From a virus (Duplodnaviria > Caudoviricetes), in the IMG/VR virus record IMGVR_UViG_3300047160_004775, positions 1,162 through 65,161 of that record: DNA of 64,000 nucleotides. One strand, written 5' to 3'. This document shows, piece by piece, positions 10,033 to 42,532 of this stretch (positions are counted from its first letter, which is position 1; each line of letters begins with the position of its first letter). The notes below the pieces were generated by a model, which ran no database searches, was not told the DNA's origin, and saw only the letters and a list, made by a program, of their open reading frames with translations. The position numbers and the translations under genes were made by a program.

Positions 10033-13000
10033 CTACTGCCCGGCACGAGCTGCCGTGGCCGCCCGGTCGCGGGCGAACTGCTGGCGCTGCTCGTCGTTGG
10101 CAAACCGCTCGAAGTCGCGCAACTGGCGCCCCGACATGCGCAGGCCGGGGTTCTGCGCCACCCTGACGTAGTAGTTCTGGAGGCCCGGCGCGATGCCGAG
10201 CTCGGTCATCTTCGCTCGAGCTCCAGCCACGTCCCCGGTCTTGATCTGCCTCTGGATTCCCGACATGGCCTGCTGAACCTGGAAGTCATGCTCGTCCTTG
10301 GCGGCGTAGTAGTCCCCGATCGCAGGGCCGCCGGGCGCGCCCTTGGAGACCGTGATGCCAGCCACCGGCAGGAAGGTCTGGAGCGCCGCAGTCTTGCGGT
10401 CCACGCCAGGGCCGCCGGCCATCATGTCCTTCGCGCCCTGGAGTTGGCCGGTCGGCGCGATGGACTCGAAGGTGTGGCCGATCACGCGCAGGACGTTCTT
10501 CCCGAAGCCCCCGAGCGTGTGGTCATAGGGATCGTAGACCTTGCGACCGAAGCCCTTGTCGTTGGAGATGATCTCGTCGGCGAGCTTCGCATAGGGCGAC
10601 ATCTTCTGCTTGAAGGTGGTGATCGGCTGCGTGACCCAATTCTCCAGATCCTCGATCGTCTTGCCGGTCGGAAGGCGCCCGTAGACCGCCGTGCCATCGG
10701 ACTGGTAGCGGAGCAGGAAGCGGTTCCGGTACTTCTCCTCGTTGTCCCACGGCGCCTGGAACTTCTGCTGTGTCAGCCACGCGACCGCGCCTGCGGCGAG
10801 CAGCCGGCCGGCGATGGAGAAGCCGAAGTCCAGGGCCAGCATCGCGATGGCTTTGCGTCTGGCGACCCCCTGGGCGTTCTGCAGTTGTTGCGCGCCAGCG
10901 TCGCGCTCGATCTGGCTGCGCACGTCCGACGGGAGGCCCTTCGTCAGATCCTTGTAGGCCGCGAGGTTCCCCAGGGTGAAGGACCGGCTGAACATCACAA
11001 TGTTGGCGAGTTGGCGCGCGACCTTGCTCATGCCCTCCATCGGGAGCGAGCCCGCGTAGCGGTTGGCGTAGTGCGCAGCGATGCGCTGGGCGGTCTGGTC
11101 GGTGATCCCGAACTGGTTGGCCTTTCGGCTCAGATCGTCGCGGATCTTGGTGTAGAGGCCCATCTGGAGGTCGCCGATGCGATCCCACAGGAAGGTGTTA
11201 TGCCAGAGGTCGCCGAACTCATCGACCTTGGCCTTGACCGCGTCGCCGGCCGCCTTATCGAACAGCCCCGGGATGTAGCCCAGCACCTGGGAGGTCCACG
11301 AGCGGCCGGGCGTGAAGGTCGCGCCGTTGTTGGCGATCGAGGCGGTGTCGATCTTGTCGAAGTGCCTCGTGATCGGCACCAGGCCGGCGTTGATCGCTTC
11401 GGCCATCGTCTCGGGATCCATCTTCGCCCGGAAGCCGCGGCGATAGGCCTCGAAGGTCGCGACGCCCACCGGATCGGCGGCGAGCGCCCGCCCCCAGATG
11501 ACGGCGTTGTGCATCAGCGGCGAGTACATGATCACGCCGAGGGCCTTGGACTTGAGTTCCATCAGGGGCCGGATGAAGGCTCGGTCGATGGCGCCCGGCG
11601 GCATCGTGAGCACGGCCTTCAGCGGCCCCTCGAACTCCTTCGAGATCCACAACGGGTTGGCCTCGAAGACCACGTCGCCGTTCTGGTCCACGGCGGTGGT
11701 GATCTTGCCCGTCTCGGCATCTTTGACGAATCGCGGGCGCCAGACCTGAAGCGCCGGATGGTCCATCGTGAAGTAGTTGTCCGACGGGCGCTGGCCCTCC
11801 ACGACCAGAGGCTCGCCGGTCTGGCTGGAGAGCTCCTTGATGCGATTGACCAGCGTGCGGCCCGCGATAGCGCGCTCCAGGCGCTGAGTGGCCAGGGGGA
11901 GGGTGCGGATGTTCCGGACCACCGTAGCCTTGTCGCCGAAAGCCTTCTGCGCCGCGGCCTCGGTCTCTGACGTGAGCTCATACTTGCGCTGCCGCAATTG
12001 GCCGGTGGTGGTCGAGAGATTGCCCCCTTGGCGTGTCTGGCGCGGCGTCGTGCGCTCCAGCACCTTGGGCCCGAAGGCCGTCATCTGGACGACCATGCGG
12101 GGCACGTAGGACTCCAACCCATCGCCTTTCACCATCCCCAAGGCCTGCGCTTCCTCGAAGGCGGCATCCGCCCGCCGTTGGAGCTCGAGCACCGCGGCGC
12201 GCTCGGCGTCATCCAGCCGGTTGAGGCCCTGGCCTGGGCCGGACTCTTCGCCGCGTCGGAGGATGACGCCCTCCTCGTCCGCGGCTTCCCACATGCGGCG
12301 CTGCTGCTCGTCGGTGAAGCGTCGGTCGAGCCACTTGTCGAGGCGCTCGTGCTGGAAGTCCGCGTTGCGCAGTGTGTTGGCGAAATCCTTGGCCGCCGCC
12401 TGGGCGCGCCCGGAGCCGGCCGCCATCGGGTTCACCGCCAGATTGACGGCGTCCTTCGTCTCGCTCAGGGCGTCGACCATCGGATCCGGCAGGGCCTTCG
12501 CGGCCGCACGCTGAAGCCGGCGTCCGGTGGCGCCAACGCCGCGCCCCAGGATGTTGTTGATATGGTCGCCTACCGCGCGCGCCTCGGGCGAGCGTTCCTC
12601 GTCGGCCGGCGGACGGGCGAACGCCGGCGTGTCGTGGTCGTCCACCCGGTTCACCGGGTAGGACTCGCGCCCGAGGCGCCGCCCGATCTCGCCGCTCTCC
12701 ATCCGGCTGAAGATGTCGGCCGCCGAGGCTTGTTGGCCGAAGGTCCGCTTGGCCATGTCCCTGATGGCGTCCAGCACCTTGGCGATCCGCTGGAAAATTG
12801 TCTGAACGAGGCCGGAGAGGCCGCGCTCGCCATCCCGGCGCCACTCGCGGAAGCGCTCGGCGATGGACTCCTCGAGCTGCTTGCCGCGCTCAAAGTCGCC
12901 GTAGCGCTCGGGAATCTGATAGCGCGACCGCCAGTCCTCGTCCGAGGCCGCGCGTTCCAGCGCCTCCCACTCTTCCGGACGGATGACGCCCGCACTCCGC

Positions 13001-16000
13001 AGCGCGTGCACGGCCTCATGTCGGCCGATCCCCACCGCATCCGGGCTCTCGATCGACCAGGCCACGAGATGGCGCAGCCCGTCGCGCCAGGAGACACCCA
13101 TTGCCCGCGCGCCGGTCGCGGTTTCGGTGATGCGCCGGGCCGGCACGACTTCGGCGAAGGGGGCGATCTTGTGGATGGCTGCGGCGATCCGATCGGTGAA
13201 GTCATTGTCGCTGCCCTGCTCGATCCTGACGCCGCGAGGCTGTGCGGCCGCTTCTCCGCGCTCGGTGCGCTTGAAGAGCGGCAGGCCGCCGGACGCGGCC
13301 TCGCGCATCGCGGGTGTGATGTCGAAGCCGGGTTGGGACAGGCCTTCCTGCGCCTCCTTGAGGCTTGCCAGATGGCGCACCTCTTCCTCTTTGGCGGCTT
13401 GGGCCACGTGCGGCCTTGTCTCGCGCCAGTTCGGGTCGATGGCATCGCGGCGGCGATTGGCGGCCTCCAAATCCACCAGTCCGCGACGGGCGTTGTATTC
13501 CATGTACTCGCCAGACGGGTTGGCGATCCGCTTCTCTTCGACCTTCGCCCCGTACTTCCTGATCAGGTCGTTTGTGATGTTGACAAGGTTGCGGTCGTAG
13601 AAGGCCTTCATGCCCTCGCCGCCGATCTTCACGTCAAGACCCTCGAGGTGGCGCTCGCGCTGTAGCCAACCGTGGCCACCGCGTCCTTCACGCGGGTCGG
13701 AGGCGAGGAGTCGATCAGCCAGCGGCTGTCCGATCAACTCGCGGAGTTCCTGTTCGCTCGCGAGTTCGCGGCGCATGACCTGATTTCCGGAGGGATCGCG
13801 GACGGTCAGTGTGCCGTGCCGGAACGGGCCCGTCATGTCGGCGCGGCCGATGCCGCCAGCAGCATTGTCCTCCAACGTCAATCGGCCGACGTGGTGCGAA
13901 AGGTCGTATCGCTCCGCTTGTTGATCCCCCGTGGTCCACGCCACCCGGTCGAAGTCGTGGTCGACGGCCCACTTGATCGCACGCTTCATCACGAGCGCGG
14001 GCCAGGAGGATTTGAAGGGGGCGTCGGGGATGCCGCCAGGATCCTTGGCGCGCTGAAGGGCCTGCTGCATTTCGTTTGCGTGCAGTCGTAGAGGCTGAAT
14101 TGGCGCGGCCTCTTGCCGAAGCTGGTCTCTCAACTCCGCGTTCGCGCCATCGCGGAAAGCGGGACTGCCAAATGCCAGGTTGAGGATGCCTAGCGACTCG
14201 TCGGGACTCATCGTGCGCCAGTTGTCGAGCACGTGCTGCACCGTGTTGTTGTTCAAGCTGGCACTGAGCTTCTGCCGCTCTTCCGCGACGACGTTGAGCC
14301 GGTGATATTCTTGGTAAAGGTCGGCGCTACCGCCGGAGCCCCCGCTGGCCCTATAGACGCCTAGGGCAGCGTCGCGCGCCTCCCGAGCCGCTGCGGCTTC
14401 GTTGGCCAGTACGTCGCGGCGCGACTCAATTAGCGGGACCGCGCGCTCGAGGAACGGCATCGCTGCGGCGCGCAATTCGGCTTGGGCCGCATCGTATTGT
14501 TCTTGGCGGAGGTCGATGGTCTTCTGATCGGGCGGCTGCCGATACCCCTGATCCCGTCCCTTCTGGTGCCAATCCGACTGGATCTCCTGCACGAACAGCA
14601 CCTTCTTGCCGTCCGGCGCCGTGCGGGTGTCAAAGCGCACGTGGGCCATGACGCCGGGCGTGTCCCAATGCGTGGCCGGCGGATTGGCCTCCTTGGGGAG
14701 GGTGAGGAGGAGCTCGCGGTAGTCTTCGCCGCCGGGGAGGGTCCAGTCGCCGAATTCCGTCTGGCCGCCGTAGCCCGAGCGCGCAATGGTCTCATCGACC
14801 ATCCGCCGATGTAGGTCGTCCTGCGCGGCGCCAGTGGCTCGGCTCCTTTCCCACGCCTCTTTGCCTTCGGCCGTTGTGCCATCGTAGTCCAGGCGCTCGA
14901 GTTCGGCCTTCGCGGCCTTGTTCTCCTCAACTAGGCGTTCCCACTCGTCGCCGTAATCCTTGATGGCCTCTTCGTCTGGGGGAATCTCCGACATGCGCTT
15001 GTCGCCGAGAATTCGCTCCTCGACCTTCACCCCATTGTCCCGCACAAACGCCTGCAGGGCTTCCTTAGGGACCTTCTCGCCCTTGAAGAGGTCCAGCCAG
15101 TCGTTGACGCCGGTCCACTCGAGCTCCTCCTTCTTCAGGCCGGGCGCGTTGCGGATGGTGGCTTTCCACTGCTCGGGCGTGGCGGCCTTCAGCGTCGAGG
15201 CGTCGATGTGGCGCTCAAGGGCGGAGTAGAACACCGGGGCCTTGGCGAACTTGGCGTCGGAGACGTCGCCCGCGTCGCGCAGGAAGGCGTCGCGCTGGGC
15301 CTCGCTCTTGAACTGGAAACCCGGGATCGCCCCGCGGCCGCGGAAGGACGAATAGTAGCCGCCGTTCTTCTTCGCCAGCCCGTTGAGGGCGTTGTATTCC
15401 TCCGGGCTCACGCGGAGTTTGGCGGTCGCGACATAGACGAGCTCGCCGGTCTTGCCGTGCAGGGTCTGGCCGAGGTCGAAGCCGCCATGCAGAGGCTTGC
15501 CAGGCTCGGCGGCCTGGGCCGCGGCGGGCGCCGGCTGCTGCTGGCGCGCGGTCTCCTCGGCCTCCTGCACCTTGGGCGCCAGGCGCTCCTTGATCGAGGC
15601 GTGCTCGAGCCGGTCGAACAGTTCGTTGATGTTCGAGGCGTCGGCGTAGTCCCGCTGGGTCTCCTGCAGGTGCTTGGCGAGATCCGGGGTGTTCTGGCGT
15701 TCCAGCACCACCACCCGGGCGCGGACCTTGGTCCCCGCGCGCTCGAAGGTCGACGTCGGCAGGTCGATGTCCGCGACCTTGTAGACGCCCTTGGCGGCGT
15801 CGGACTCCATCAGCTTGTCGAACTTGCCGTCGGTCGCCCCGCGAGGGATCAGGGCCACGATCCGGCCGCCGTCCCGCAGATGGTTCATCGCCTTCTCGAG
15901 GTGGTCGATGGCCGTGGCCCCGGCGTGGCCGAACGGCGGGTTCATCACGATGGCGTCGAACTTGTTGACCGGGTGGAGGTCCTCGAAGCGCTCCTGCAGC

Positions 16001-19000
16001 ACCCGCGCGCCCGGCGCGTGCAGGCCGGCTTTGGAGGCGAGTTCGGCCGACGGCTCGATCAGCGTGCGGTCGGCGGTCTCGGGGAAGAACCGCGCGATGG
16101 CGCCGTGGCCCGCGGAGGGCTCGAGCACCCGTTCGCCCGGCCGGATGTCCGCCCACTCGGCCATCTTGAGGCCCAGAGGCTCGGGCGTGGGGAAATAGTC
16201 CAGGCCTTCGCGCTGGTCGCGCCGGCCGGACTTCTTGGCCTCGGCGAAGTAGTACGAGCGCGCCTTCTGATAGGCCGTCACGGCCTTGGCGAGCTCGAAG
16301 TCCGCCTGCTTGCCGCCCTTGCCCTCGCCGGGTTGCGGCGGCAGGTCCGCGCTGTCCAGGAAGGCGTTGATGAAGGATTCCCGCAGGGTGCGGGCCTGCT
16401 CGCCGAGCGCGAGGTTCTCCGCCGTGCCAGCCCGCTCGGCGATTTTGGAGGCGAAGGCGTATCGCTCCCAGGCCGTGCCGGTGTTGAGGTAGCGCAGGAT
16501 CGCGTCGGACTTCTGGCCCAGACGGTAGATCCGCCCTTCCTGCTGGATGGCGGCGGTGGGGCGCACCGGCAGGCCGAGGTTGATCAGCGCCCGCTGATGC
16601 TTGCCGCTGGTGTCGTGCAGGCTGATGCCCGCCTGACCGGCGTCGGACTGCACGATGATGAGGTTGTGCGGCGATCCGTCGGCGTTGAACTGCGCCTTGG
16701 CCCGCTCGCGCATGCCCTTGGACACCGTGCCGTTGTAGATCAGCGCCTTGGGGAAGGCCTGGGTCAGCTGCGCGATCGGCGAGGGCAGGTTGGCCAGGTC
16801 GCGGTCGATCTGCTCCACATAGGGGTTCTTGGCGGCGAACTCCTCGTGCAGCTGCTTCATCTCGCCCGGTCGGCCGCCCCGCATCTCCATCTCGGGGTGG
16901 TAGGCGAACGGCGAGAAGCCCCCGCCTTCGTTGAAGTTGTGGAACACCACCACCTTGCGCCCGAGGGCCATGTGGGCGCGGATGATCGGGATGGCGGCCT
17001 TGGCCTTGATGGCCTCCAGAAGGCGCGCGCGGTTGAGGTAGTTGAAACGGCTGTCGATGGCGTCGGCGAGGTTGCGGTACTTGCCGTCCTCGGCCGAGCG
17101 CAGGAACTGCAGGGCCTGGTCGATCTTCTCGCCCACGCCGGCGTGCACCAGGGCGAACTTGCGGTCGTAGTCCTGGTCGACGTTGAGCACGCGGCCCGAG
17201 AGCGAACCGGAGCGGCGCAGCCACTCGTGGAACTGCCGCTCCATGATCTCGGACTCGACCGCCGCCTCGGGCTTGGTCAGCTTGTTGGACCTCATGCGGT
17301 AGCCGAAGTGCCGCATGAAGAACTGGTCTTTGGCCGAGCCGACGTTGTAGCCGCGGCTCTGCGGCTCCGGCCCCCAGTCGAACAGGTAGCCGTGGGCCCA
17401 CTCGATGGACTTGTCGTAGGCGAACGGGGTGGCGGACAGGAACGCGGCCTTGGGGCGGTCGAGCGCCTTGAGCTCCTCGACGCGGGCCTTGGCCTTCTCG
17501 TTGAACCGCTCGTAGGCCTCGCGCCAGCGCTGGTACATCGGGCCGGAATAGACGCCCTTGGGCGGCTGCAGGGCGTCGACCTTGGCCTTCTCCGCGCGCA
17601 TTTCCATCTCGGCGCGTCGGTAGAGGCGATTGGGGTGCAGCGTCAGGGCGCGGAAGCTCCGCAGGGCTTCGGTCTCCGAGCCCTTCTGGTCCGACGACAG
17701 GGTGTGGGCTTCGTCGGCGATGACGAGGTCCCAGGTGCGGTCCGCGAGGCTCTCGTTGGCCGCCAGGGCGGCGTAGGTCGTGCCCACCGGCCCCTTACCG
17801 GCGCCAGCGGTGTCCTCCAGCACGTGGAAGGGAACGCCGAGCTTCTCCATGGCCTCGGCCCAATGCGACAGGATGCCCTGGCTGGGCGCGATCACGAGGA
17901 TGTCGCGCTTGCCGGCGTCGTGAAACCGCTTCGCCAGTCCCCCTCCCGTGAAGGTCTTGCCGGTGCCGGTGCCGTTGGTGAACAGGACGCCGTGACCCTC
18001 CTTCTCGTCGAACCGCTTCTCCGCGAAGGCCACATCGCCACGCTGTTCCGGGAAGAGAAGCGGAAGGGCGCGCTCGAGCTCCGAGGAAACCGGCGGGGCG
18101 CCGACGCTCTCGGCGAACGGATGGGCGTCCGCAGCGACCGGCTCTACGTGGGCGGAGTCTGTAGAAGCCGCTGCAAGGTCTGCTGCTGGGAGCCGGTTAG
18201 GCTGAATTCCTTCGTCGCGAGCAGGGCCGCTTCCGCCGGGCTCCCCACGTCCGGCAGGCTGTCCTGCAGCCCGGGGTTCTGCCTCGCGTGCGCCTGGAGC
18301 GCCTGGTTCTCCCACAGGAGCGGCGCCACGGTCAGGTACGCCGAAGAGGTCTTGCGATCCACGCCCTGGGCCGACATTGCCCCCTCCCGGGCCTCCAGGG
18401 CCTCGTTGAGCTTGTCCTGGCTCAGCGGGAAGAGGGCCCTCGCCATAGGCGTTTGCAGCGGCTGGCTCGCCGCCACGTCGTTCCAGATCCTCGACGCCAC
18501 CTGATACATCGCTGCGGACTCCCGCCACGACCTGCGGCGTAATCGCCTCGGTCGGGGTCATGCCCTCGGGTTTGACGCCGGGGTAGTGACGGACGGACTC
18601 ATACCACATCTTCAGGTACGGTCGCGCGGCTTCGCCAAGGTCTTCGAGCATAGCCTTCGCGTAGTCGCCGAACAGGCGCGCGCCGGCTTCGATGTGGTAG
18701 CCCGCGAGCTCGACCCCGTCACGGATCAGGTCGGGATCGAGGCCAGCGTTCAGCTGGTTGCGCAGCTTGTCGCGCAGGCGCCGCCGGGCCTCGTCGGCTC
18801 GCTCCTTGGTGAAGATCGTGTTGTTCTCGCCGTAGCCTTTGGGCTGCGCCTCCGCGGTCGCCTGCTTGGCCTCCGGGGTGGGCGCGGTAGGCTTGAGGTC
18901 GAACAGGCCAGCCTCGGGCGGTGGTGCGAAGAGGCCCTCGTCCGCTTCCTTCTGCCGCATCTTGGCGCGGATCGGACCTTCGCCGCGGGCCTCGGCGGCC

Positions 19001-21804
19001 TGCTTGGCTGAGCGTTCGCCGCCGGGGATGAGAAGCTGGTCCGCAGGACCGTTGGCGAGATCGACGCGCTCGGATGGCGCTTGTCTGCCGTAACCCACCT
19101 CCGCTATGGCCGCTCTGATCTTGTCGATCACGGCGTTCATCCAGGGCGGCCGCGAGCCGTCACGAGTTTCGGCCTGCTCGGCTCTCCTCAGAATGTACGC
19201 AGCTACATCGGGGCGCCCATGTCGGATCGCAGTGCGAGCGTCGTCCGGCGCGTCGTCCACCGCAAAGCCGTGCCCGAGCGCTCGGCGCATAACTTCGCGC
19301 ATGGGATCATCAGGATCGGCGTGGTCGATGTCCCGATAGTCCGCCATCTCCTCGTCCGTCGCCGGACGCGGCAGTTCCCCTAGTTGATCCGGCCGAGGTA
19401 CTTCTTGCGGATTTCCACCACGGCCTGCTGCGCCCGGACCATGTTGTCCAAGATCTTCTTCCTCTCGGGCGATACGCCACTCATCTCCGCCAGGCGGCTC
19501 AAAAGGGAAAGGCGGGTCTGGCTCGCCTTCAGAGCGTCGGCCGGCTTCAGCGAGCCACTCGTGCTCTTCGGGGGTGAGGACATGGTCGATCCGATCTTCG
19601 TAGTGGTCGGCGGTCCAGCCGTCGGCTTCGCCTTGGATCGCTTCACGTTCTAGCACATCGGCGAGCAACTCGTCATGGGTCGCATCGGCGCGCGGTTGCA
19701 CTCCGAGTTCCTGCGCTCTGGCGCGCAAGGCCTCGGTCTCTACGGTGTGGCTCAATACCTCCTGACCGCGCCACGCCGCGAGCTTCGCCGCCGCAGTCTC
19801 AAGCGCATCGCGCGGTTGGATGCCCGCAGCTCCGAACTGCTCTTCAAGGTCCGCACGACGGGCGAGGACTTCTGGCAATTGAGATGTCGGATGGTAGACC
19901 CGCTGGCTTCGGTCGCCGCCGGCTGCGCGCTCGCGATCCATCAGGGCATAGAGGTCGTTGATGCTGTCGCCGGGGTTGGTTCCCGCGAGATCATCCGCGG
20001 CGCCGGCGCGTTCACCGAACCAGCCGCGCTGCTGCAGAAGTTCGCGCATCCCATCAGGCGACAGGCCGGACTTGTTGTTGCGCAGGCCGGGCAGGCGATA
20101 GCCCTCCAGCGCACGCTGGACCTCGCCGATCGGCGAACCGTCCGCCTCCTCGGTGCGAATGCCGCCGAGGTCCCGCATGGCCTGAAAGAGGCTGTAGTCC
20201 CTGGGCGCGGCGCTCCGGAACTCCTGCACGTCCGCGATAGCCTGCGGCATCTGCTCCAGGGACGCGCCGTGGGCCACTCGCTCGCCTTCGAAGGTCTTTG
20301 GCAGCGTGACCGTCTGATCGTTCGGCGTGACCACATCGCCCGCGGGGGTCTGCACCACGGCGTGGGAGCCGCTGGTGTCGATCACGACGCCCTTGGCGAG
20401 GCCCTCGGGGGTCTGGAACAGCACCGAGTCGCCCTCGGCCGGCGCCGCGCCGGGCGCACCCTGGCCCGCGTAGGCCCGGATGGCGTCGGTGCCCGGCATG
20501 GCCTCGGGCGACGGCGCTGACGCCGCCGGTTGCTCGCGCGGCCGCAGGAGGCCCTTGCCGACATTCCACGCCGCGCCGCCGACGTCGTGTCCCCCTCGGA
20601 TCAGCACATCCCCCACCGCGCCCTGCGCCATCGCCTGGGGCACTTGGTCCGCCCAGTCGCGGTCGGGGTCGTAGGTCTGCCGCGCGACCACGTTGCCTCC
20701 GACCCGCATGGCCCCCATCAGGGTGGCGTTGCCGGCCGCGCCGGCGGCGTAGCGCGCGCCCACCCGCACCGCAGTGTTCTCCACGCCCTTGACCAGGGCC
20801 CCCGCGGCATGGCCGACCGGAACCAGCCCGAGACCGCCCTGGATCTCGGCGTTGGCCGCCGCGGCCTGGCGGGCCACTTCCGGGGGGGCCCCGTGGGCGA
20901 TGGCGTCGTCATAGGCCTCGCCGTAGCCCTGAAGTGCGAACACGCCGGCTCCCGCCGCCGGGTTGACCATCGCGGCGCCGAACGCCGGCATCATCTCGCC
21001 GGCGCCGTGGGCGATGGACTCCGCGACGTTGCGGTTCTTGGGCGCGATCTCCTCGCCTGCGACCTGCCAGGCCTTGGCGGTCGGCTCGACCTGCGGGCCG
21101 ACGGTCTTGGAGTTGGTCGCGACCTCCTGCTGCGCCTCAGCGCGCTGCTCGGGGGTGAGTTTGATGATCGACTGCCCGAGGACGATGTAGCCGGTGTCCG
21201 CGCCCTGCTTGGCCGCCGCCTGCCCGGCCGCGTCGCCCCACACGCCAAAGTCGTGGATCAGGTCGCCGATGGTCTTGACCGCGCCGCCGGCGGTGGACAT
21301 GCCGAGGCGGATCACCGCCTGCTGGAAGCCGAGGTTGCCGGTGGGCTTGGCCGACGGTGTCGCCGCGCTACCGTCGCTGACGACGCCCCACGGATCGTCC
21401 GCGCCCTGCTGCGTCACCGCCCACGGATCATCGCCGGGCGTCATCCCCACGTGGACATGCGGCCCCTGGGTCCCACTGGCGCCCTCGGCGAACACGTGGC
21501 CGGTGGGCAGTCCGGCGCTCTGGAGCTTGGCCACGGCGGCGTCTTGGCTCATGCCCTTGACGGTGATGTCCCGGGCGCCCGGCGCTTCGATGTCGCCGGC
21601 GTTGTGCGGCGAATTCTGGCCGGGGGGAACCGTCTGCGCGCCCTGTGCGCGGAGCGCGTTCTCGCGGCTCTGCGAACGCCAGCCACCGGTCTGCGACCAG
21701 TTGCCGGGGCCGAAGGTCTGGTCCATCGCGGCGCCGAAGTCCGCGTCGTTCAGGTAGCCCGAACTCGCGCCGGGCCCGGCGACGACATCCCACCCATCGG
21801 CCAT
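10033..21804 (-). CDS. giant DarB-like polyvalent ejection protein (M15-like peptidase, SF2 helicase, N6-adenine MTase, zincin motif)
   Basis: 3923 aa; NGTGTGKT and DEAH; QQEGRIYRLGQ; VLEPSAGHG and NPPF; HEAVH; follows the gp7/gp20-like genes. Confidence 0.9.
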   Translation of the reverse strand: MADGWDVVAGPGASSGYLNDADFGAAMDQTFGPGNWSQTGGWRSQSRENALRAQGAQTVPPGQNSPHNAGDIEAPGARDITVKGMSQDAAVAKLQSAGLPTGHVFAEGASGTQGPHVHVGMTPGDDPWAVTQQGADDPWGVVSDGSAATPSAKPTGNLGFQQAVIRLGMSTAGGAVKTIGDLIHDFGVWGDAAGQAAAKQGADTGYIVLGQSIIKLTPEQRAEAQQEVATNSKTVGPQVEPTAKAWQVAGEEIAPKNRNVAESIAHGAGEMMPAFGAAMVNPAAGAGVFALQGYGEAYDDAIAHGAPPEVARQAAAANAEIQGGLGLVPVGHAAGALVKGVENTAVRVGARYAAGAAGNATLMGAMRVGGNVVARQTYDPDRDWADQVPQAMAQGAVGDVLIRGGHDVGGAAWNVGKGLLRPREQPAASAPSPEAMPGTDAIRAYAGQGAPGAAPAEGDSVLFQTPEGLAKGVVIDTSGSHAVVQTPAGDVVTPNDQTVTLPKTFEGERVAHGASLEQMPQAIADVQEFRSAAPRDYSLFQAMRDLGGIRTEEADGSPIGEVQRALEGYRLPGLRNNKSGLSPDGMRELLQQRGWFGERAGAADDLAGTNPGDSINDLYALMDRERAAGGDRSQRVYHPTSQLPEVLARRADLEEQFGAAGIQPRDALETAAAKLAAWRGQEVLSHTVETEALRARAQELGVQPRADATHDELLADVLEREAIQGEADGWTADHYEDRIDHVLTPEEHEWLAEAGRRSEGEPDPPFPFEPPGGDEWRIAREEEDLGQHGPGAAGRGGNPQEVPRPDQLGELPRPATDEEMADYRDIDHADPDDPMREVMRRALGHGFAVDDAPDDARTAIRHGRPDVAAYILRRAEQAETRDGSRPPWMNAVIDKIRAAIAEVGYGRQAPSERVDLANGPADQLLIPGGERSAKQAAEARGEGPIRAKMRQKEADEGLFAPPPEAGLFDLKPTAPTPEAKQATAEAQPKGYGENNTIFTKERADEARRRLRDKLRNQLNAGLDPDLIRDGVELAGYHIEAGARLFGDYAKAMLEDLGEAARPYLKMWYESVRHYPGVKPEGMTPTEAITPQVVAGVRSDVSGGVEDLERRGGEPAAANAYGEGPLPAEPGQAQRGPGGPGGGNVGPGRGSQDLFGVPDRGAAPVGEPGAPGAREAEPRAAGQPAGRGEPGGSGPARDEGIQPNRLPAADLAAASTDSAHVEPVAADAHPFAESVGAPPVSSELERALPLLFPEQRGDVAFAEKRFDEKEGHGVLFTNGTGTGKTFTGGGLAKRFHDAGKRDILVIAPSQGILSHWAEAMEKLGVPFHVLEDTAGAGKGPVGTTYAALAANESLADRTWDLVIADEAHTLSSDQKGSETEALRSFRALTLHPNRLYRRAEMEMRAEKAKVDALQPPKGVYSGPMYQRWREAYERFNEKAKARVEELKALDRPKAAFLSATPFAYDKSIEWAHGYLFDWGPEPQSRGYNVGSAKDQFFMRHFGYRMRSNKLTKPEAAVESEIMERQFHEWLRRSGSLSGRVLNVDQDYDRKFALVHAGVGEKIDQALQFLRSAEDGKYRNLADAIDSRFNYLNRARLLEAIKAKAAIPIIRAHMALGRKVVVFHNFNEGGGFSPFAYHPEMEMRGGRPGEMKQLHEEFAAKNPYVEQIDRDLANLPSPIAQLTQAFPKALIYNGTVSKGMRERAKAQFNADGSPHNLIIVQSDAGQAGISLHDTSGKHQRALINLGLPVRPTAAIQQEGRIYRLGQKSDAILRYLNTGTAWERYAFASKIAERAGTAENLALGEQARTLRESFINAFLDSADLPPQPGEGKGGKQADFELAKAVTAYQKARSYYFAEAKKSGRRDQREGLDYFPTPEPLGLKMAEWADIRPGERVLEPSAGHGAIARFFPETADRTLIEPSAELASKAGLHAPGARVLQERFEDLHPVNKFDAIVMNPPFGHAGATAIDHLEKAMNHLRDGGRIVALIPRGATDGKFDKLMESDAAKGVYKVADIDLPTSTFERAGTKVRARVVVLERQNTPDLAKHLQETQRDYADASNINELFDRLEHASIKERLAPKVQEAEETARQQQPAPAAAQAAEPGKPLHGGFDLGQTLHGKTGELVYVATAKLRVSPEEYNALNGLAKKNGGYYSSFRGRGAIPGFQFKSEAQRDAFLRDAGDVSDAKFAKAPVFYSALERHIDASTLKAATPEQWKATIRNAPGLKKEELEWTGVNDWLDLFKGEKVPKEALQAFVRDNGVKVEERILGDKRMSEIPPDEEAIKDYGDEWERLVEENKAAKAELERLDYDGTTAEGKEAWERSRATGAAQDDLHRRMVDETIARSGYGGQTEFGDWTLPGGEDYRELLLTLPKEANPPATHWDTPGVMAHVRFDTRTAPDGKKVLFVQEIQSDWHQKGRDQGYRQPPDQKTIDLRQEQYDAAQAELRAAAMPFLERAVPLIESRRDVLANEAAAAREARDAALGVYRASGGSGGSADLYQEYHRLNVVAEERQKLSASLNNNTVQHVLDNWRTMSPDESLGILNLAFGSPAFRDGANAELRDQLRQEAAPIQPLRLHANEMQQALQRAKDPGGIPDAPFKSSWPALVMKRAIKWAVDHDFDRVAWTTGDQQAERYDLSHHVGRLTLEDNAAGGIGRADMTGPFRHGTLTVRDPSGNQVMRRELASEQELRELIGQPLADRLLASDPREGRGGHGWLQRERHLEGLDVKIGGEGMKAFYDRNLVNITNDLIRKYGAKVEEKRIANPSGEYMEYNARRGLVDLEAANRRRDAIDPNWRETRPHVAQAAKEEEVRHLASLKEAQEGLSQPGFDITPAMREAASGGLPLFKRTERGEAAAQPRGVRIEQGSDNDFTDRIAAAIHKIAPFAEVVPARRITETATGARAMGVSWRDGLRHLVAWSIESPDAVGIGRHEAVHALRSAGVIRPEEWEALERAASDEDWRSRYQIPERYGDFERGKQLEESIAERFREWRRDGERGLSGLVQTIFQRIAKVLDAIRDMAKRTFGQQASAADIFSRMESGEIGRRLGRESYPVNRVDDHDTPAFARPPADEERSPEARAVGDHINNILGRGVGATGRRLQRAAAKALPDPMVDALSETKDAVNLAVNPMAAGSGRAQAAAKDFANTLRNADFQHERLDKWLDRRFTDEQQRRMWEAADEEGVILRRGEESGPGQGLNRLDDAERAAVLELQRRADAAFEEAQALGMVKGDGLESYVPRMVVQMTAFGPKVLERTTPRQTRQGGNLSTTTGQLRQRKYELTSETEAAAQKAFGDKATVVRNIRTLPLATQRLERAIAGRTLVNRIKELSSQTGEPLVVEGQRPSDNYFTMDHPALQVWRPRFVKDAETGKITTAVDQNGDVVFEANPLWISKEFEGPLKAVLTMPPGAIDRAFIRPLMELKSKALGVIMYSPLMHNAVIWGRALAADPVGVATFEAYRRGFRAKMDPETMAEAINAGLVPITRHFDKIDTASIANNGATFTPGRSWTSQVLGYIPGLFDKAAGDAVKAKVDEFGDLWHNTFLWDRIGDLQMGLYTKIRDDLSRKANQFGITDQTAQRIAAHYANRYAGSLPMEGMSKVARQLANIVMFSRSFTLGNLAAYKDLTKGLPSDVRSQIERDAGAQQLQNAQGVARRKAIAMLALDFGFSIAGRLLAAGAVAWLTQQKFQAPWDNEEKYRNRFLLRYQSDGTAVYGRLPTGKTIEDLENWVTQPITTFKQKMSPYAKLADEIISNDKGFGRKVYDPYDHTLGGFGKNVLRVIGHTFESIAPTGQLQGAKDMMAGGPGVDRKTAALQTFLPVAGITVSKGAPGGPAIGDYYAAKDEHDFQVQQAMSGIQRQIKTGDVAGARAKMTELGIAPGLQNYYVRVAQNPGLRMSGRQLRDFERFANDEQRQQFARDRAATAARAGQ
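18144..18509 (-). CDS. overprinted gene in the +1 frame of the giant protein (121 aa)
   Basis: GGGAG RBS 9 nt before ATG; third positions mostly G/C in this frame; helical protein-like sequence. Confidence 0.75.
   Translation of the reverse strand: MYQVASRIWNDVAASQPLQTPMARALFPLSQDKLNEALEAREGAMSAQGVDRKTSSAYLTVAPLLWENQALQAHARQNPGLQDSLPDVGSPAEAALLATKEFSLTGSQQQTLQRLLQTPPT
19380..19583 (-). CDS. second overprinted ORF in the +1 frame of the giant protein
   Basis: 31 of the last 34 codons end in G/C; amphipathic basic helix; start uncertain (19646, 19583 or 19484). Confidence 0.55.
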   Translation of the reverse strand: MSSPPKSTSGSLKPADALKASQTRLSLLSRLAEMSGVSPERKKILDNMVRAQQAVVEIRKKYLGRIN

Positions 21805-23511: not shown

Positions 23512-24237
23512 CTAGTAGAGACCGTCCCATGCGGCCTGAATATCCGCCGGCGCGTTGGCCATCGTCATGGTCGTGCCGGAACTTCCTCCGCCGGGCCACC
23601 ACTTGTTGGCCAGCGATCCCAGCTGCGAGAGGCCGGAGTTCAGAATGTTGCCCTGGGAGACGGCGTTCGCGGCGTTGACCGCGCCGGCGCTCGCGGTGGT
23701 CTGGGCGATGCCCTGCCCCGCCGAGACGCCGTTGTTGCCGAGGCCTGCGGCGGCGTTCTCCCCGAGGTTCGCGAAGCTCTGGAGCGTCGAGATGTAGGGT
23801 TGCCAGCCCTGCTGGAGCGCGTAGTTCGTGCCGTACTGCTGGGCGGCCTTGAGTTGCGCGCCGGAAAGAAGCAGCCCGGAGCTCGCCGCCGAGCGGTCCA
23901 GGGCCTGCTGCCCTTGCTGCAGGCCGAATTGGTAGCCCGGAAACTGCGTGAGCGCCGAAGTGATCGCCGAGGAGTTGGGAGCGCCGGAGCCGCCGGAGCC
24001 GAAGCCAAACAGGTTGGCGAGTTGCGACATGGCGCTGCCGCCGGTCGAGATGAACGGCGAGAGATCCGACCGGGTCTGGTTATACATCGCCATCTGGGTC
24101 GCGTTGGCCTGGTTGGCGGCATTCTGCGTCGCCTGCGCGGCGTTGCTGGACGCGTTGGAGGAGATCAGGGCGCTTCCGATGGAACCCGCCGCGCCGAGGC
24201 CCCCGGCAATGAGGGCCGGACCAGAAATCGACGGCAT
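23512..24237 (-). CDS. DNA transfer/ejection protein, P22 gp7-like
   Basis: GAAGSIGSALISS.A...PGYQFGLQQGQQALDRSAA..G.LLSG..LKA..QYG motif. Confidence 0.85.
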   Translation of the reverse strand: MPSISGPALIAGGLGAAGSIGSALISSNASSNAAQATQNAANQANATQMAMYNQTRSDLSPFISTGGSAMSQLANLFGFGSGGSGAPNSSAITSALTQFPGYQFGLQQGQQALDRSAASSGLLLSGAQLKAAQQYGTNYALQQGWQPYISTLQSFANLGENAAAGLGNNGVSAGQGIAQTTASAGAVNAANAVSQGNILNSGLSQLGSLANKWWPGGGSSGTTMTMANAPADIQAAWDGLY

Positions 24238-24710
24238 CAGCCCGCCTCCCCGATGAACAAGCTGTAGGTGACCTGCGTGGCCTCCGCGCCGCGGCGCTTG
24301 AAGAACCGCCCGATGTTCCAGCCGCGGCCGCGCAGGCGGTGATGCGGGAAGATCCACGAGACGCCGTAGTTGCGCAGCATCTCCACGCTGGCGTCAAACA
24401 TCTTGGCCGCGACGAGGGGGTGCTTGGGCAGCACGTACCACGCGCCCTGCTCGGCGATCTTGAGCCCCTTGGATTCCACGTCTGGGCCGGTCTGCCACGA
24501 CAGGTAGCCGATCACGTCGCCGCCCTTCCTGGCGATGATGACGTGCAGATGGCTCGACACCGCTGCTTGGCGCATGAGTTCGAGGTCGAGCTCAAAGGGG
24601 CGTCTCGGATCCGGGCCGTCCACTTCCGCCGAGTGGGCTTCGGCCAGAGCCTTGACCTCGCGCCACAGATGGGCCGTCCAGGGCTCTTCGCCGACGGTGA
24701 GCTCACGCAT
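24237..24710 (-). CDS. GNAT-like acetyltransferase-fold protein
   Basis: HVIIAR.GG.VIGYL...AEQGAWYV..KH; typical position upstream of gp7-like genes. Confidence 0.7.
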   Translation of the reverse strand: MRELTVGEEPWTAHLWREVKALAEAHSAEVDGPDPRRPFELDLELMRQAAVSSHLHVIIARKGGDVIGYLSWQTGPDVESKGLKIAEQGAWYVLPKHPLVAAKMFDASVEMLRNYGVSWIFPHHRLRGRGWNIGRFFKRRGAEATQVTYSLFIGEAG

Positions 24711-30157: not shown

Positions 30158-30789
30158 CAGGACCGATCTCCCACAACCGCGAGGCCGAAGGGCCCCTTCA
30201 TGCCGTTCAAGTTCGTCGGCGCCACGAGATCCAGGTAGTCGACCTGTCCGCGCAGGTAGGTGTTCGCCGTCATCGCGCACACTGCTGTGGTTTGCCCCGT
30301 GTGCCAAGTCGCCGTACCGACGGGGTTTCCGTCGATGGCCAGAGTGAAGACGGTATCGGCCCCCGGCGCGGTGCCGACGACGCCCCAGCTGCGGCCCGCG
30401 GTGATCGGGATACGCCAGTTCACCGGCGACGGCGCCCGCCCCATCGTCGCGCCGAGCGTCATGGTCGAGATGTCGCCCTTGGAGAACAGAACCCCAAAGG
30501 TGTGGTCCGGGGCCTGCCGCGGCGTCGTGTAGGCCCGCATGAGCGCCTGGTCGGCGGCGTCCTGGGCGATGGATTCCGCGCCCCCCGGACCGATGGTCGC
30601 GCCGCCCGGTTGCTCTTGGACGATGATGTCGATGATGCCGCCGCCGCCCTGGATAGCCGCCCACATCAACTGCAGGAATTCCATCGCCGCCGGCGTCAGC
30701 ATCCCGTTCGCGCCGGTGAAGGGGAAGTTGAAGACCGGCGGCGGGACTGGAAACGATGCGATGACGGGGTTCTGCGGGTTCTGAGGCAT
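30154..30789 (-). CDS. tail-associated protein
   Basis: TGATG-coupled to the gp10-like gene; C-terminal beta domain resembles that of the 9253 ORF. Confidence 0.7.
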   Translation of the reverse strand: MPQNPQNPVIASFPVPPPVFNFPFTGANGMLTPAAMEFLQLMWAAIQGGGGIIDIIVQEQPGGATIGPGGAESIAQDAADQALMRAYTTPRQAPDHTFGVLFSKGDISTMTLGATMGRAPSPVNWRIPITAGRSWGVVGTAPGADTVFTLAIDGNPVGTATWHTGQTTAVCAMTANTYLRGQVDYLDLVAPTNLNGMKGPFGLAVVGDRSW

Positions 30790-32198
30790 CAGGGAAGGCC
30801 CGAGATGTCGGCGTGCGCCGCGATGATCGTCCGCGGGACCGGGTCGGAGACGTTCAGCATCCACGACATCTGGAAACCCTGGCCCTGGCTCATCCACCGC
30901 AGCCGCCGCTGGTATTCGCCGATCTTGCCCATCGACCGCCAGGGCTGCTGCATCGACCACGTCATGCCGCCGTCCTTCGATCGCTGGAGCATGATCTGCG
31001 GATCCGACCCCTGGCCGTTCGGGAGGCCGACGCCGGCCTGCACATCGAGCTCGAAGCGCGAGCAGAAGATCCGCTTGCGGTCGTGGTGCTGATTGACGGT
31101 CTGGATCTGCCCGATGATCTGGTTGCCGTACTCAGTGTAGGTGGTCCAGTCCACCACTCCGATGTCGCCGCCCTGGGTATCGCCCACCAGGAGGGTGTTG
31201 TAGGCGGCCAGCGGATAGGCGCCGCGCCAGCCGCCCAGGCTCGCGAACCCGGCGTCGAAGCTGTCGCGCTCGTGCCACTTGCCCGTCGCGATGTCATAGC
31301 AGAACGTCGCCTGCGCGGTCGGCAGGTACATGAAGATGAGCTTGTGGCCCTGGATCGTCAGGTGCGTACACACGATCGCGCTGAGGTCTGTCTCGCCGGC
31401 CAGGATCGTCTCGATGGGATGGGTGGAGACCCGGATAGGCACGTTGGCCTGCAGGCGGTAGAAAATCCGGTCGTTGGCCAGGAAAAACAGGGCGGAGTCG
31501 GCGAGCAGGATGGTGTGCGGCGAAGAGCACCCGTAGGGGATCACGCCGCCGGCGTAGCGCTGGAAGGGGAAATTCGGTGTGCCGGCGTCGTACCAGAGCT
31601 CGATGTGCGAGGTCGTGAAGACGTAGAGCAGTTGCAGGTTCTGCGCGGTGGCGACCACCTCGCCAGGCATCGCTTCGGCGCTGGCGAAGTCCAAGGCATC
31701 GTAGGTGAGGCCATCGTATAGCGCCGACAGGAACCACTCGTTCGTGCCCTTGCGGTCGAAGATGAAGTACCCGTCCATGAACGTGACGGTGTTGCAGGGG
31801 TAGAAGGCCGAACTCGTAATCGGCTGGAGGCCCGAGCCGCTCGTGTAGATCCACCCGCCAATGCCGTTCACGATGCACATCTGCTGCCCGTTGTCGGACA
31901 TCGACACCGGACCCGCGCCGGTGATCCCCGTACCGACGCGCACCGCCGTGCCGCTCGCCGAGACGCTGTAAACCTCCGAACCCTGGACGTAGTACGCCAC
32001 GTCGTTGAAGAGCCGGGATCCGCGGCTTGGCGCGGAGCCCGCCGTTCCCAGCGCTCGGATGCCCGGCGTCGAGAAGAGGGGGGCCTGCGATTTGGCGTCG
32101 GGCGGCTGGCGCTCCGTCATGAAGTTGAGCAGCCGAGAGTTGATCAACTGCGGCGCCCGGCTGCGCGCGCTCTCGATCGCCAGGAGGATTTCCGCCAC
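30789..32198 (-). CDS. packaged DNA stabilization/tail hub protein, P22 gp10-like
   Basis: 469 aa; DGYFIF, FASAE..PG, FELDVQAGVG...DPQIML..S.DGG.TWS motifs. Confidence 0.88.
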   Translation of the reverse strand: MAEILLAIESARSRAPQLINSRLLNFMTERQPPDAKSQAPLFSTPGIRALGTAGSAPSRGSRLFNDVAYYVQGSEVYSVSASGTAVRVGTGITGAGPVSMSDNGQQMCIVNGIGGWIYTSGSGLQPITSSAFYPCNTVTFMDGYFIFDRKGTNEWFLSALYDGLTYDALDFASAEAMPGEVVATAQNLQLLYVFTTSHIELWYDAGTPNFPFQRYAGGVIPYGCSSPHTILLADSALFFLANDRIFYRLQANVPIRVSTHPIETILAGETDLSAIVCTHLTIQGHKLIFMYLPTAQATFCYDIATGKWHERDSFDAGFASLGGWRGAYPLAAYNTLLVGDTQGGDIGVVDWTTYTEYGNQIIGQIQTVNQHHDRKRIFCSRFELDVQAGVGLPNGQGSDPQIMLQRSKDGGMTWSMQQPWRSMGKIGEYQRRLRWMSQGQGFQMSWMLNVSDPVPRTIIAAHADISGLP

Positions 32199-39777: not shown

Positions 39778-40100
39778 GTGCCTGGTTCCTCGTTTTCCTC
39801 AACGGCAGGCTCCTCGTGGAGCACGCCGTAGAACCTTTGGATGTCACTCAGACTGATTCCCCGCAACAGCCTTAGCGTTGCGAGCTTGCCGCGGACCACG
39901 TCGATGTTCTGGTCCTCGTGCTCCGCGCCGGGCTTCAGATGGCCATATTCCACGAGGTCGGCGGCGATCTCGCGCCAGTTCTCGTGCTGGTGGGACAGGA
40001 AGTCGAAAAAGGCCTTCGTGATGGGGCTGTGCATCCACTGCGCCCAGGACTCCTGGCCCATCTCTTCGAACAATTGTCTTGGGTCGAAGTCCACGCTCAA
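39774..40100 (-). CDS. hypothetical protein downstream of the portal
   Basis: Overlap-coupled at both ends; W..SPITKAFF motif. Confidence 0.7.
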   Translation of the reverse strand: MSVDFDPRQLFEEMGQESWAQWMHSPITKAFFDFLSHQHENWREIAADLVEYGHLKPGAEHEDQNIDVVRGKLATLRLLRGISLSDIQRFYGVLHEEPAVEENEEPGT

Positions 40101-42532
40101 CCCTCCATTGTCGGTCCGGCCGCGTCCGGCAACCCGCCACCGAGCGCATCAGCGCCCGGTGGTCCACCGGGCGCGGGCTTGGTGACTGCGGGCCCTGGGG
40201 TAGTGACGGGAGCCTGCGGGAACGGTCCTGTGGGCCCTGGCGTCGGCTGCGCGCCCGGTCCGGCGCTCGCGGTTTCCAGCGCGTTGAGCGCCATGTCGTG
40301 GGCGCGGTCCAGGGCGTTCTCGCGGGCCTCGTGCTGCCGGTCCATGTGGTCGCCGATCATGTCGGCCATGCCGGAGCGCCGCTGATGGTCGAGCGCCTGC
40401 GAACGGGTGTCGGCGTTCAGGGACTCGATGCTCAGGCGCAGGAAGTCAAGTTGGGCCTGGATAAAGGCCTCCTCGCCGGCGGTGGCGTTCTTGCGAGCGA
40501 GGGCCATGTTGAGGAAGGCCTGCGTCTGGTCCTTCATCTCCGCAGCCCGCATCTTGCCGAGTTCGGCTTGCTGCATGGCCATCGCGAACTGCGCCTGCTG
40601 GGCGTTCGGCTTGGAAAAGAGGTCGTCGATCCGGTCCATGCCAGCTGCGTCGAAAAGCCGGCGCCGGATCTCCACTTGGTCGATCAACGGGTCGCCGTTG
40701 AACTCCATGAGGATCTGCGCCCGCCCGAGCTTCTGCATGTCGGTGAGCATGGTCGGGTCGGCGATGGGCTCGACGCCGCCGCCCTTCTTGTAGTCGTCGG
40801 GCTCGATCTCCCGGTACTCGTCGCCGATGGTGTAGCCCTCGGCGGCCTGCACGTGGCGGCGGTTCAGGCGATAGAGCTTATCGAGCTCCGACTTCTCCGC
40901 GAGGAACACGCGCTTGTGGATCGCGGTGTAGATCTTCATGCCCTGTTCGATCAGGGCGAGCACGGTGGTGGGCGGTGCGTTGGCGATCGAGGCGTCGCCG
41001 GCCAGGATGTTGCCCGTGGAGGCGAGCTTCTCCGCAGCCTGGAGCAGCGTACCGAGGAGTTGGAACAGGACCGTCGAGGGGCCGGGGAACGGAATCGGGA
41101 ACACCGACGCCCGGATGTCCACGCCCTTGGTCGTTACCCTGGTGTAGCGACCGACCTGGAACAGCGTCTGTCCCGACGGAAGCCCTAGCTGGTCGGAGAC
41201 GAAGCCGCCCCCGGCGTTCTGCAGCGTGGCGGCGTCGAACATCTGGTTGACGGCCGTGTTGACGGCGGCGTTGAGGGGCTTGAGCAGGGTGCCGAAGCCG
41301 ACTGGATAACAGCCGTCGTCCATCGCCGGCAGGAAGCTGTAGAGCGTGTACTTCGGATCGGGCTCGATCCGCAGGATGGTTTCGCCGTCCTCGGAGGCAT
41401 GGACCCCGTCCTCGGCGTAGTTCGCGACAATGCGGACCGTCTTGGCCGACCGGAGGTGCACCGTGACGATGTAGGGCTCGGCGTAGCCATCGCCGTCGAG
41501 GTCCAGGCGGCGGTGTTGCTCGAGGTAGACGTGGGGCGAGTCCTCGTCTCCCTGGTCGGCCGACACCACGCTCTGGTTCCAACCCCAGGTTTCACCTTCT
41601 CCGCCGCCGCCCGGGCCATAGGTCTGCGGCAGGAACTCGTCCGCGCGTTCAGCCTCGACGATCTCATGCGGATACTTGAGGAGCTTCTCCGTGTGCCGCG
41701 GCGCGGCGTTGAACGAAGGCGCATGGTAGTTCCACACGATATTGGCCAGCGAAACGAGTTCGGAGCGGTTGCGGCCCTCCTTGCCGTCGTACCACGTCTT
41801 GCGCACCACCCCGCCGACGATGGGCAACTGGATCAGCAGCTGATCGGTCTGGTCCTGCCACTCCGGCATCTGGTGGAGCAACTGCCAGCTCATGTGCTCG
41901 CCGATGCGGTCGGCGCGCTTCCGCTTCGCGCCTGGCGGGACGAGCCAGTTTGGGATGGGCTGCCCGTCCGGCCCCGGGATCATCGGGAGCGGCCTGCCAT
42001 CGGGCTTGCCGTCCACGGTCGCCGGCTGGCCGTCGTCCGATCCCCAAACGATGCCTTTGACCACCTTGCGGTTCTGGATGATCGCGGGGAACAGGCGGGC
42101 GTTGAACTCGACGGCGCTCTGGGCGATCAGCGGGTAGATGACGTTCGAGGCTTTGGGCCACGGAAACTGCTTCTGCTCCGCGACCTGGGTGGCGAACTTC
42201 ACGGCCTTCTCGGCGCGGTCCCACCAGTCCTTCCGGCTGTTCTCGTCGATCTGAAAGTCCTCGACGATCGTAGCGCCGATCTGGTCGAGGATCTCGCCGT
42301 CAAGGTAGCGGGCGATGTTGGAATCGTCGATCTGCTCAACGAGCACTTCGTAGAGGCTGCCCTTGGGCCGCTTCAGCGCCGGTGAGCGGTCTTCAGGCTC
42401 GACCTCTGGGTCTTCCCCTTCGGGATCGAACTCCTCCTGATGCTCAGGCGCTTCCAGGCCGGTGGCGTTCTCGTAGTCGTCCTCGGGCCGGCTCACCATC
42501 GCGACCCGCGACAGGGAAGACTCGATTGCCAT
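40097..42532 (-). CDS. portal protein (podovirus type)
   Basis: 811 aa; FPWPKASNV.YPL, YPVGFGTLL.P.N.AVN..VNQM.DA, IHKR....EL motifs. Confidence 0.9.
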   Translation of the reverse strand: MAIESSLSRVAMVSRPEDDYENATGLEAPEHQEEFDPEGEDPEVEPEDRSPALKRPKGSLYEVLVEQIDDSNIARYLDGEILDQIGATIVEDFQIDENSRKDWWDRAEKAVKFATQVAEQKQFPWPKASNVIYPLIAQSAVEFNARLFPAIIQNRKVVKGIVWGSDDGQPATVDGKPDGRPLPMIPGPDGQPIPNWLVPPGAKRKRADRIGEHMSWQLLHQMPEWQDQTDQLLIQLPIVGGVVRKTWYDGKEGRNRSELVSLANIVWNYHAPSFNAAPRHTEKLLKYPHEIVEAERADEFLPQTYGPGGGGEGETWGWNQSVVSADQGDEDSPHVYLEQHRRLDLDGDGYAEPYIVTVHLRSAKTVRIVANYAEDGVHASEDGETILRIEPDPKYTLYSFLPAMDDGCYPVGFGTLLKPLNAAVNTAVNQMFDAATLQNAGGGFVSDQLGLPSGQTLFQVGRYTRVTTKGVDIRASVFPIPFPGPSTVLFQLLGTLLQAAEKLASTGNILAGDASIANAPPTTVLALIEQGMKIYTAIHKRVFLAEKSELDKLYRLNRRHVQAAEGYTIGDEYREIEPDDYKKGGGVEPIADPTMLTDMQKLGRAQILMEFNGDPLIDQVEIRRRLFDAAGMDRIDDLFSKPNAQQAQFAMAMQQAELGKMRAAEMKDQTQAFLNMALARKNATAGEEAFIQAQLDFLRLSIESLNADTRSQALDHQRRSGMADMIGDHMDRQHEARENALDRAHDMALNALETASAGPGAQPTPGPTGPFPQAPVTTPGPAVTKPAPGGPPGADALGGGLPDAAGPTMEG

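Follow-up and report, generated by a model that had tools for sequence, protein, structure and literature searches.

In phage lambda, the 60-residue lipoprotein Rz1 is encoded inside a 153-codon gene, Rz. The two products form one complex of known function, and both are needed. In Bacillus subtilis, srfAB contains the 46-codon gene comS, which is limited to a narrow taxon and lies over an enzymatic domain. To our knowledge, bacteria and their phages very rarely contain same-strand overlapping genes that are both long and deeply conserved. By design, annotation pipelines do not permit such overlaps. In this study, we analysed a stretch of 64,000 bases (the window) from the IMG/VR viral record IMGVR_UViG_3300047160_004775 (65,161 bases, rated 99% complete; GC 63-73%). 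On its minus strand, at 18144..18509, an open reading frame (ORF) of 121 codons lies within the gene for a protein of 3923 amino acids (aa). This ORF very probably codes for protein as a gene in its own right, nested in the +1 frame, and on the same strand, of a giant polyvalent gene. The features of the locus are as follows.

10033..21804, minus strand: giant polyvalent protein gene, DarB-like/PLxRFG-type, 3923 aa, in the late, P22-like ejection-protein region
18511..18855, minus strand: domain X, a conserved helical domain at about aa 985-1098, directly upstream of the overlap (phrog_10089, phrog_10691; AlphaFold2 predicted local distance difference test score (pLDDT) 93-97)
18519..18523, minus strand: Shine-Dalgarno (SD)-like GGGAG, 9 nt 5' of the nested ATG (anti-SD duplex energy -6.9 kcal/mol)
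18144..18509, minus strand: putative nested gene, 121 aa plus TAG stop, ATG start, +1 frame of the giant gene
18106..18507, minus strand: giant-frame low-complexity linker, predicted disordered, the dual-coding part (AlphaFold2 pLDDT 41-52; giant-frame GC at third codon positions (GC3) 0.46-0.56)
16405..18078, minus strand: superfamily 2 (SF2) helicase domain, ResIII / strawberry-notch-type (PF04851 1263-1373, PF13871 1714-1792, phrog_5143 1243-2074)
15646..16209, minus strand: N6-adenine DNA methyltransferase domain of the giant protein (phrog_15406 1866-2053; PF05175)

An initial annotation of this DNA had described a same-strand +1 ORF of 121 aa with a GGGAG ribosome-binding site, and its coordinates, frame and site were all found in the sequence. 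The ORF is offset from the 3923-aa ORF by 3295 nt (3295 mod 3 = 1), which places it in the +1 frame. Its GC content at codon positions 1/2/3 is 0.67/0.48/0.90, indistinguishable from that of the giant gene overall (0.71/0.48/0.86), and this frame-resolved GC3 agrees with the earlier remark that its codons end mostly in G or C. The same bases read in the giant frame give 0.90/0.68/0.48. Coding-type composition moves from frame 0 to +1 and back to frame 0 exactly at the ends of the nested ORF. Over this span the giant frame is, as had been noted, open as a G/P/A/E/R-rich low-complexity linker, immediately 5' of the GTGTGKT helicase motif (Walker A). The helicase domain begins about 20 codons past the nested stop.

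As in Rz/Rz1, a complete same-strand gene with a start of its own sits in +1 within a gene of a phage late region. The sequence holds what marks that pair, namely a complete nested ORF, its own start signals and two maintained frames. It differs from Rz/Rz1 in that the predicted product is a 121-residue soluble helical protein, the enclosing gene is 11.8 kb long, the overlap falls in a disordered linker and the arrangement is kept across phyla. The likeness to comS/srfAB is that a small out-of-frame gene lies in a giant multidomain gene and is co-transcribed with it. However, comS overlaps an enzymatic domain, whereas the present gene overlaps a linker and has a wide taxonomic range. Judged from the sequence comparisons below, the nested gene appears to be real, ancient and unannotated; its family has no name, and its kind is already known from Rz1/Rz and comS/srfAB.

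Polyvalent proteins of phages and conjugative elements have been described by Iyer et al. (2017, PMC5512222). The host gene encodes a polyvalent protein in this sense because of its giant size and its helicase, methylase and 'large polyvalent protein-associated' (LPD)-type domains, the last of these in its relatives. It has the giant multidomain build that defines this class, which includes P1 DarB. The giant protein matched DarB-like PHROGs, and its relatives, more than 1,100 in number, carry LPD domains, for example LPD38; PF18857, PF18823 and PF18760 are among the Pfam models found in the relatives. A term search of the main text of Iyer et al. (2017, PMC5512222) revealed no passage on a gene in a second reading frame, and our literature searches brought up no description of such a nested gene.

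Conservation of the nested layout

A tblastn search with the 121-aa protein against GenBank phages returned eight records (E 5e-15 to 3e-8), whose hosts are Klebsiella, Serratia, Pseudomonas, Vibrio and Ruegeria. Each match underlies one annotated giant coding sequence (CDS) and no other annotated gene. The frame was computed in six of these records and was +1 of the giant CDS in 6/6; the two further records are RefSeq copies of two of the six. The six ORFs start with ATG, comprise 120-131 codons and keep the N-terminus M-Y/F/H-Q-V/A-P ... W-N, and the giant frame passes through them as a low-complexity stretch. The nested gene is unannotated in all eight records, in line with the expectation of the initial annotation that pipelines keeping only the longest ORF would miss it. 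The carriers include phages studied for therapy, such as Klebsiella phage vB_KpnP_ZX1, and several have been cultured, which makes direct testing possible. Besides ZX1, the cultured carriers include Serratia phage Parlo, Pseudomonas phage Skulduggery, Ruegeria phage 45A6 and Vibrio phage 1.232.O.

Loci from IMG/VR and from bacterial assemblies were collected with the helicase segment alone as the query, because selection on the nested ORF had to be avoided. All ten IMG/VR loci (helicases 43-55% identical, GC 0.43-0.66) carried the family ORF in +1. The nested ORF stops a few codons ahead of the helicase in these loci, and the giant frame is open throughout the 5.4-kb locus. Among 80 bacterial loci, drawn from one-genome-per-species assemblies, 69 had both the +1 nesting and an open giant frame. 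The taxa represented are Alpha-, Beta- and Gammaproteobacteria, Negativicutes, Verrucomicrobiota, Planctomycetota, Campylobacterota, Bacteroidota and others. The remaining 11 loci comprise seven with no family ORF, three with too little upstream DNA and one odd case. In those seven, the helicase gene stands by itself; it begins a short way upstream of the match and has neither domain X nor the linker. When the fused giant genes that could be assessed in the bacterial assemblies are counted, 69/70 carry the nested homologue, which is also present in 7 cultured phages and 10 IMG/VR contigs.

Nested loci span GC 0.37-0.69, with the homologue just upstream of the helicase domain. The pooled set of 85 nested ORFs (the window plus loci from L001-L116) has lengths of 116-144 aa. 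Stops in this +1 frame of homologous giant genes, which the initial annotation had named as evidence against a gene, were found in 0/85 relatives. A pattern scan with the small protein alone found no relatives. The comparison suggests that the layout is old and that, in phages and prophages from many phyla, it accompanies those giant genes that are built of domain X, linker and helicase.

Selection on the two frames and the predicted protein

Substitutions were compared in 22 independent (phylogenetically disjoint) pairs. The counts at small-frame positions 1/2/3 were 647/501/964, and position 3 was the most variable in 21/22 pairs. Read in the small frame, these counts are those of an ordinary coding sequence; for the giant frame the pattern is reversed, with the third position the least variable. 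Over the same nucleotides, amino-acid identity was higher in the small frame than in the giant frame in 21/22 pairs (means 0.69 vs 0.52; Wilcoxon p = 1.4e-6). Among single-base changes, those silent in the small frame but replacing in the giant frame were 1.76-fold enriched, and the reverse class stood at 0.72-fold.

The giant frame was open through the nested ORF in 85/85 loci, despite a median chance of 0.003 when each small protein was back-translated with local codon usage. For this reason, the alignments argue for true dual coding, in which both frames are kept by selection. The giant-frame linker, which otherwise cannot be aligned, contains an invariant Leu-Glu, with E1108 (about 18481-18483) present in 37/37 giant proteins (alignment A2). 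This pair is invariant because it is forced by the nearly invariant Trp9-Asn10 (TGGAAC) of the small protein, and the nested gene is therefore recognisable from giant protein sequences alone. The stop codons of the 85 nested ORFs were TAG in 41, TAA in 41 and TGA in 3; the scarcity of TGA is possibly caused by giant-frame constraint.

A HMMER search against 1.84 billion cluster representatives found 326 family clusters (at 50% identity) with E<=1e-3, 116 of them with E<=1e-10. Most are 120-130 aa long and align from residue 1. In a 90-member alignment, E67 is invariant, and M1, W9, N10, A13, P63, L64, A70, E93, A94, L112 and L116 are nearly so. AlphaFold2 on this alignment returned a seven-helix globule (pLDDT 96.4, predicted template modelling score 0.89), as expected from the helical globular protein that had been proposed. 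When the giant-frame segment was modelled with 64 relatives, domain X reached pLDDT 93-97 and the helicase N-terminus 85-94. Residues 117-250 of the modelled segment, which cover the overlap and the next dozen or so residues, gave pLDDT 41-52 with no secondary structure. The locus would be a clean natural case of a predicted ordered protein overprinted with a predicted disordered linker. The conservation, the substitution pattern, the start signals and the confident fold agree with the earlier proposal that a real gene is embedded here without breaking the 3923-aa frame. One homologue, P0158, is 63% identical, and the gene calls on its contig are fragmented.

Proposed translation of the nested frame and alternative readings

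We suggest that ribosomes would start independently at the nested gene's own SD-ATG within the giant mRNA, yielding an all-helical globular protein of 121 residues. In the giant frame, these nucleotides would provide no more than a disordered tether from the helical domain to the helicase. Selection would act mainly on the small frame, with the giant frame merely held free of stops. The start codon of the 85 nested ORFs is ATG in 83 and GTG in 2, at the homologous first position in every case. An SD-like site was present 4-20 nt 5' of the ATG in 15/15 loci tested; compared with background positions of the same genes, these sites ranked at a median 2nd percentile.

Programmed frameshifting would instead join the small domain to the N-terminal 1,100 residues (+1 in) or to the helicase-methylase (-1 out). 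Among bacterial homologues, P0016 and P0037 fit such a product, with the small domain fused in frame to a stretch like the tail of domain X; so do the fused bacterial forms that were opened, where the small domain is mostly N-terminal and followed by other domains. However, the start codons and SD-like sites just described speak for a separate start. In addition, a +1-frame stop lies at most five codons upstream of the start in 33/85 loci and is directly adjacent to it in 10, which leaves a shift into the frame without space. Over the last 40 codons, an in-phase slippery heptamer (X XXY YYZ) occurred in 2/85 loci, compared with 3 and 2 for the out-of-phase controls. A frameshift product is improbable, and it was rejected for want of a conserved in-phase slippery site and for the stops upstream of the start. 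Because of the SD-like sites, the upstream +1 stops and the lack of an enriched slippery heptamer, independent initiation inside the giant mRNA appears far more likely than a frameshift fusion.

The ORF could also be a chance open frame of GC-rich DNA with no gene in it. When the giant gene was shuffled synonymously, the +1 frame remained open across the nested 121 codons in 69% of cases. Another 33 alternative-frame ORFs of at least 80 aa occur in the giant gene, one of 728 aa on the same strand and one of 1098 aa in antisense among them, and the length of the nested ORF is unremarkable for a window of 67% GC. Within the window alone, the openness of the nested ORF is at chance level, and the support for its translation is at the level of sequence; these points weigh against a nested gene. 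What goes beyond chance is the codon-position signature and the conservation among relatives. Conservation at the protein level extends down to 0.37 GC, where chance openness is about 1e-3 per locus, and the small-frame substitution pattern, the confident fold and the stand-alone homologues also stand against a chance frame. On this comparison, an accidental open frame is extremely improbable and looks already refuted, barring mis-assembly of the loci compared.

Two compensating indels in this contig, real or from sequencing errors, might have displaced an in-frame domain, as the change of coding-type composition exactly at the ORF ends would allow; but 85 independent records, some of them finished genomes of cultured phages, show this +1 layout complete with start and stop, and contigs from other soil runs reproduce 18082-18489 exactly and without indels, so that this explanation has hardly any probability left and seems already refuted. 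That the conservation reflects a regulatory structure or some other RNA or DNA element of the linker, and no second protein, is equally remote, since substitutions concentrate at the small-frame third codon position, the proteins are still similar (28-40% identity) where the DNA can no longer be aligned, and the AlphaFold2 confidence rests on a protein alignment.

Possible role, origin and genomic setting

Ordinary genes without an overlap also encode the domain of the nested gene, for the most part at the N-terminus. One such homologue is a 288-aa protein adjoining SNF2 and Helicase_C genes. Another, of 557 aa, lies directly 5' of hsdR-hsdS-hsdM (type I restriction-modification, R-M) on an integrase-bearing element. 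A third has 402 aa and a multi-pass membrane tail and directly follows a 1702-aa LPD38 polyvalent gene, and a fourth, of 539 aa with a membrane tail, adjoins an XRE regulator. The neighbours of two more were uninformative. Loci of non-nested homologues with extra C-terminal parts are L118:1645-8209, L032:8001-15565 and L034:256-2341. The homologue upstream of the type I R-M operon has two acidic repeats and lies near a HEPN AbiU2 gene. The non-nested homologues may be host or prophage proteins that turn the same domain against incoming elements.

The initial annotation had offered, as a possibility, a chaperone, inhibitor or antitoxin of the adjacent helicase-methylase. Our best guess, and a tentative one, is that both proteins are made together and that the small one works with the giant one or upon it, perhaps helping it to fold or be packaged, or restraining it in the producing cell. 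A partner role is the best guess because the small gene keeps a constant place in the giant mRNA and because half of the non-nested forms have helicase or polyvalent genes next to them. If so, the nested protein may be a missing piece for how polyvalent proteins are made, packaged or controlled. Several points weigh against such a role. A helicase or polyvalent neighbour is missing for 3/6 non-nested homologues, and the functional support comes from gene neighbourhood alone. Pfam, PHROGs and NCBIfam contain no family for the small protein or its longer fused relatives. Fold searches gave nothing above noise (Foldseek against PDB, best E 3; VIA-align wide, best Z 4.7), the best match in the viral folds of BFVD was at the noise level (E 1.8), and the small-protein sequence had no match in PDB below E 0.16. 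The best score in the ESM Atlas, 0.78, was uninformative. A complex prediction for the small protein and giant residues 985-1850 scored 0.00; it was run with no controls and counts neither way. A family of at least 326 clusters at 50% identity, for which neither a fold nor a model in Pfam, PHROG or NCBIfam is known, would be hidden in one of the largest and most widespread phage and prophage anti-defence gene classes.

A DNA mimic of the Ocr/ArdA type was also considered. For such a protein, a strongly acidic surface with a pI (isoelectric point) of about 4 and a large negative charge is expected. The family is mildly acidic, with a median pI of 5.15 and a net charge of -4, and the window protein a pI of 5.24 and a net charge of -2, so the charge does not support a mimic. 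As for fold similarity, the PDB matches stayed at the noise level given above.

The initial annotation spoke of a gene overprinted inside the giant gene. The nesting was found as described; as to direction, the composition and the stand-alone homologues point the other way, to a small gene onto which the linker was overprinted. The small gene is probably the older one, and we lean towards a linker that arose by read-through when two flanking genes fused across the small gene. The small gene is placed first because of its genome-like small-frame composition, the disordered giant frame and the stand-alone forms. In P0016 and P0037, the stretch that precedes the small domain in frame resembles the domain X tail with blastp E values of 8e-7 and 6e-6 in a 15-sequence set. 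The N-terminal extension of P0016 had no significant BLASTP match to the window's own giant protein; it matched the giant-frame tail in L013 and L002. A profile search for longer fused forms gave one match only.

TnpV (PF14198) is another small protein found in a nested position. In 201 Bacillota genomes, 7/15 TnpV loci lie inside a same-strand frame of at least 867 codons, and 8 are not nested. In the nested loci (L124, L125, L126, L128, L131, L134 and L136), the enclosing frame has 867-918 open codons and is shifted by one base. The likeness to the present family lies in the +1 nesting and the similar size (about 115-125 aa). The present family differs in being all-helical and in coming from phages and prophages, chiefly those of Proteobacteria and Negativicutes. 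Identity with TnpV was rejected, as neither the window protein and 90 family members (E<=1) nor the whole record had a PF14198 match, and a relationship was rejected at an hhalign probability of 0.2%.

In L022-L028, whose helicase is 31% identical, the present family is absent, and a different, unrelated 73-codon +1 ORF (L022:2169-2387, L024:2172-2390) occupies the linker before the helicase. Identity is 82% in the frame of this ORF (+1) vs 70% in the giant frame; its codon positions show 10/6/17 substitutions, and GC is coding-type in +1. A different ORF thus sits at the same spot, and unrelated small genes therefore appear to use this niche repeatedly. It is conceivable, although less likely than not, that polyvalent linkers form a general dual-coding niche. 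Unrelated small proteins (this family, Firmicute TnpV and the L022-L028 ORFs) would have been captured there repeatedly and always in +1. Each would be an obligate, stoichiometrically coupled partner of its giant protein, as an assembly chaperone, an export or packaging adaptor or an inhibitor in the producer cell. If this were true, nested small genes would be a defining and overlooked component of polyvalent anti-defence systems.

The giant gene stands in a P22-like late module with the following further genes.

40097-42532: portal gene
30789-32198: head-closure gene
23512-24357: 'DNA ejection' gene, phrog_598

The gene order is the phrog_598 'DNA ejection' gene, a 487-aa ORF, the giant gene and a tail-fibre-like gene. 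Judged by gene position alone, it is a fair inference that the giant product is an ejection protein. Contigs from many soil metagenome runs contain parts of 17600-19200. The helicase most similar to that of the window (67% identity) lies on L037, a contig of a Rhodospirillales metagenome-assembled genome from a palsa sample. The phage of the window is probably a soil phage of Alphaproteobacteria.

A second +1 open stretch of 89 codons lies at 19380-19649 on the minus strand and holds an 88-aa ORF with a GTG start. Over this stretch, the giant frame has high GC at first codon positions and low GC3 (0.38-0.5). L037, the closest relative, has a 90-codon +1 ORF (384-656) with the same boundaries and 46% identity, and the substitutions between the two are even over codon positions (34/37/37). 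The product had no match among GenBank phages. The stretch may be a second nested gene or merely shared DNA. Two longer ORFs occur in the helicase-methylase region: a 728-aa same-strand +2 ORF at 15215-17401 on the minus strand, and a 1098-aa ORF at 15208-18504 on the plus strand, antisense to the giant gene. Long alternative-frame ORFs such as these are expected at 67% GC.

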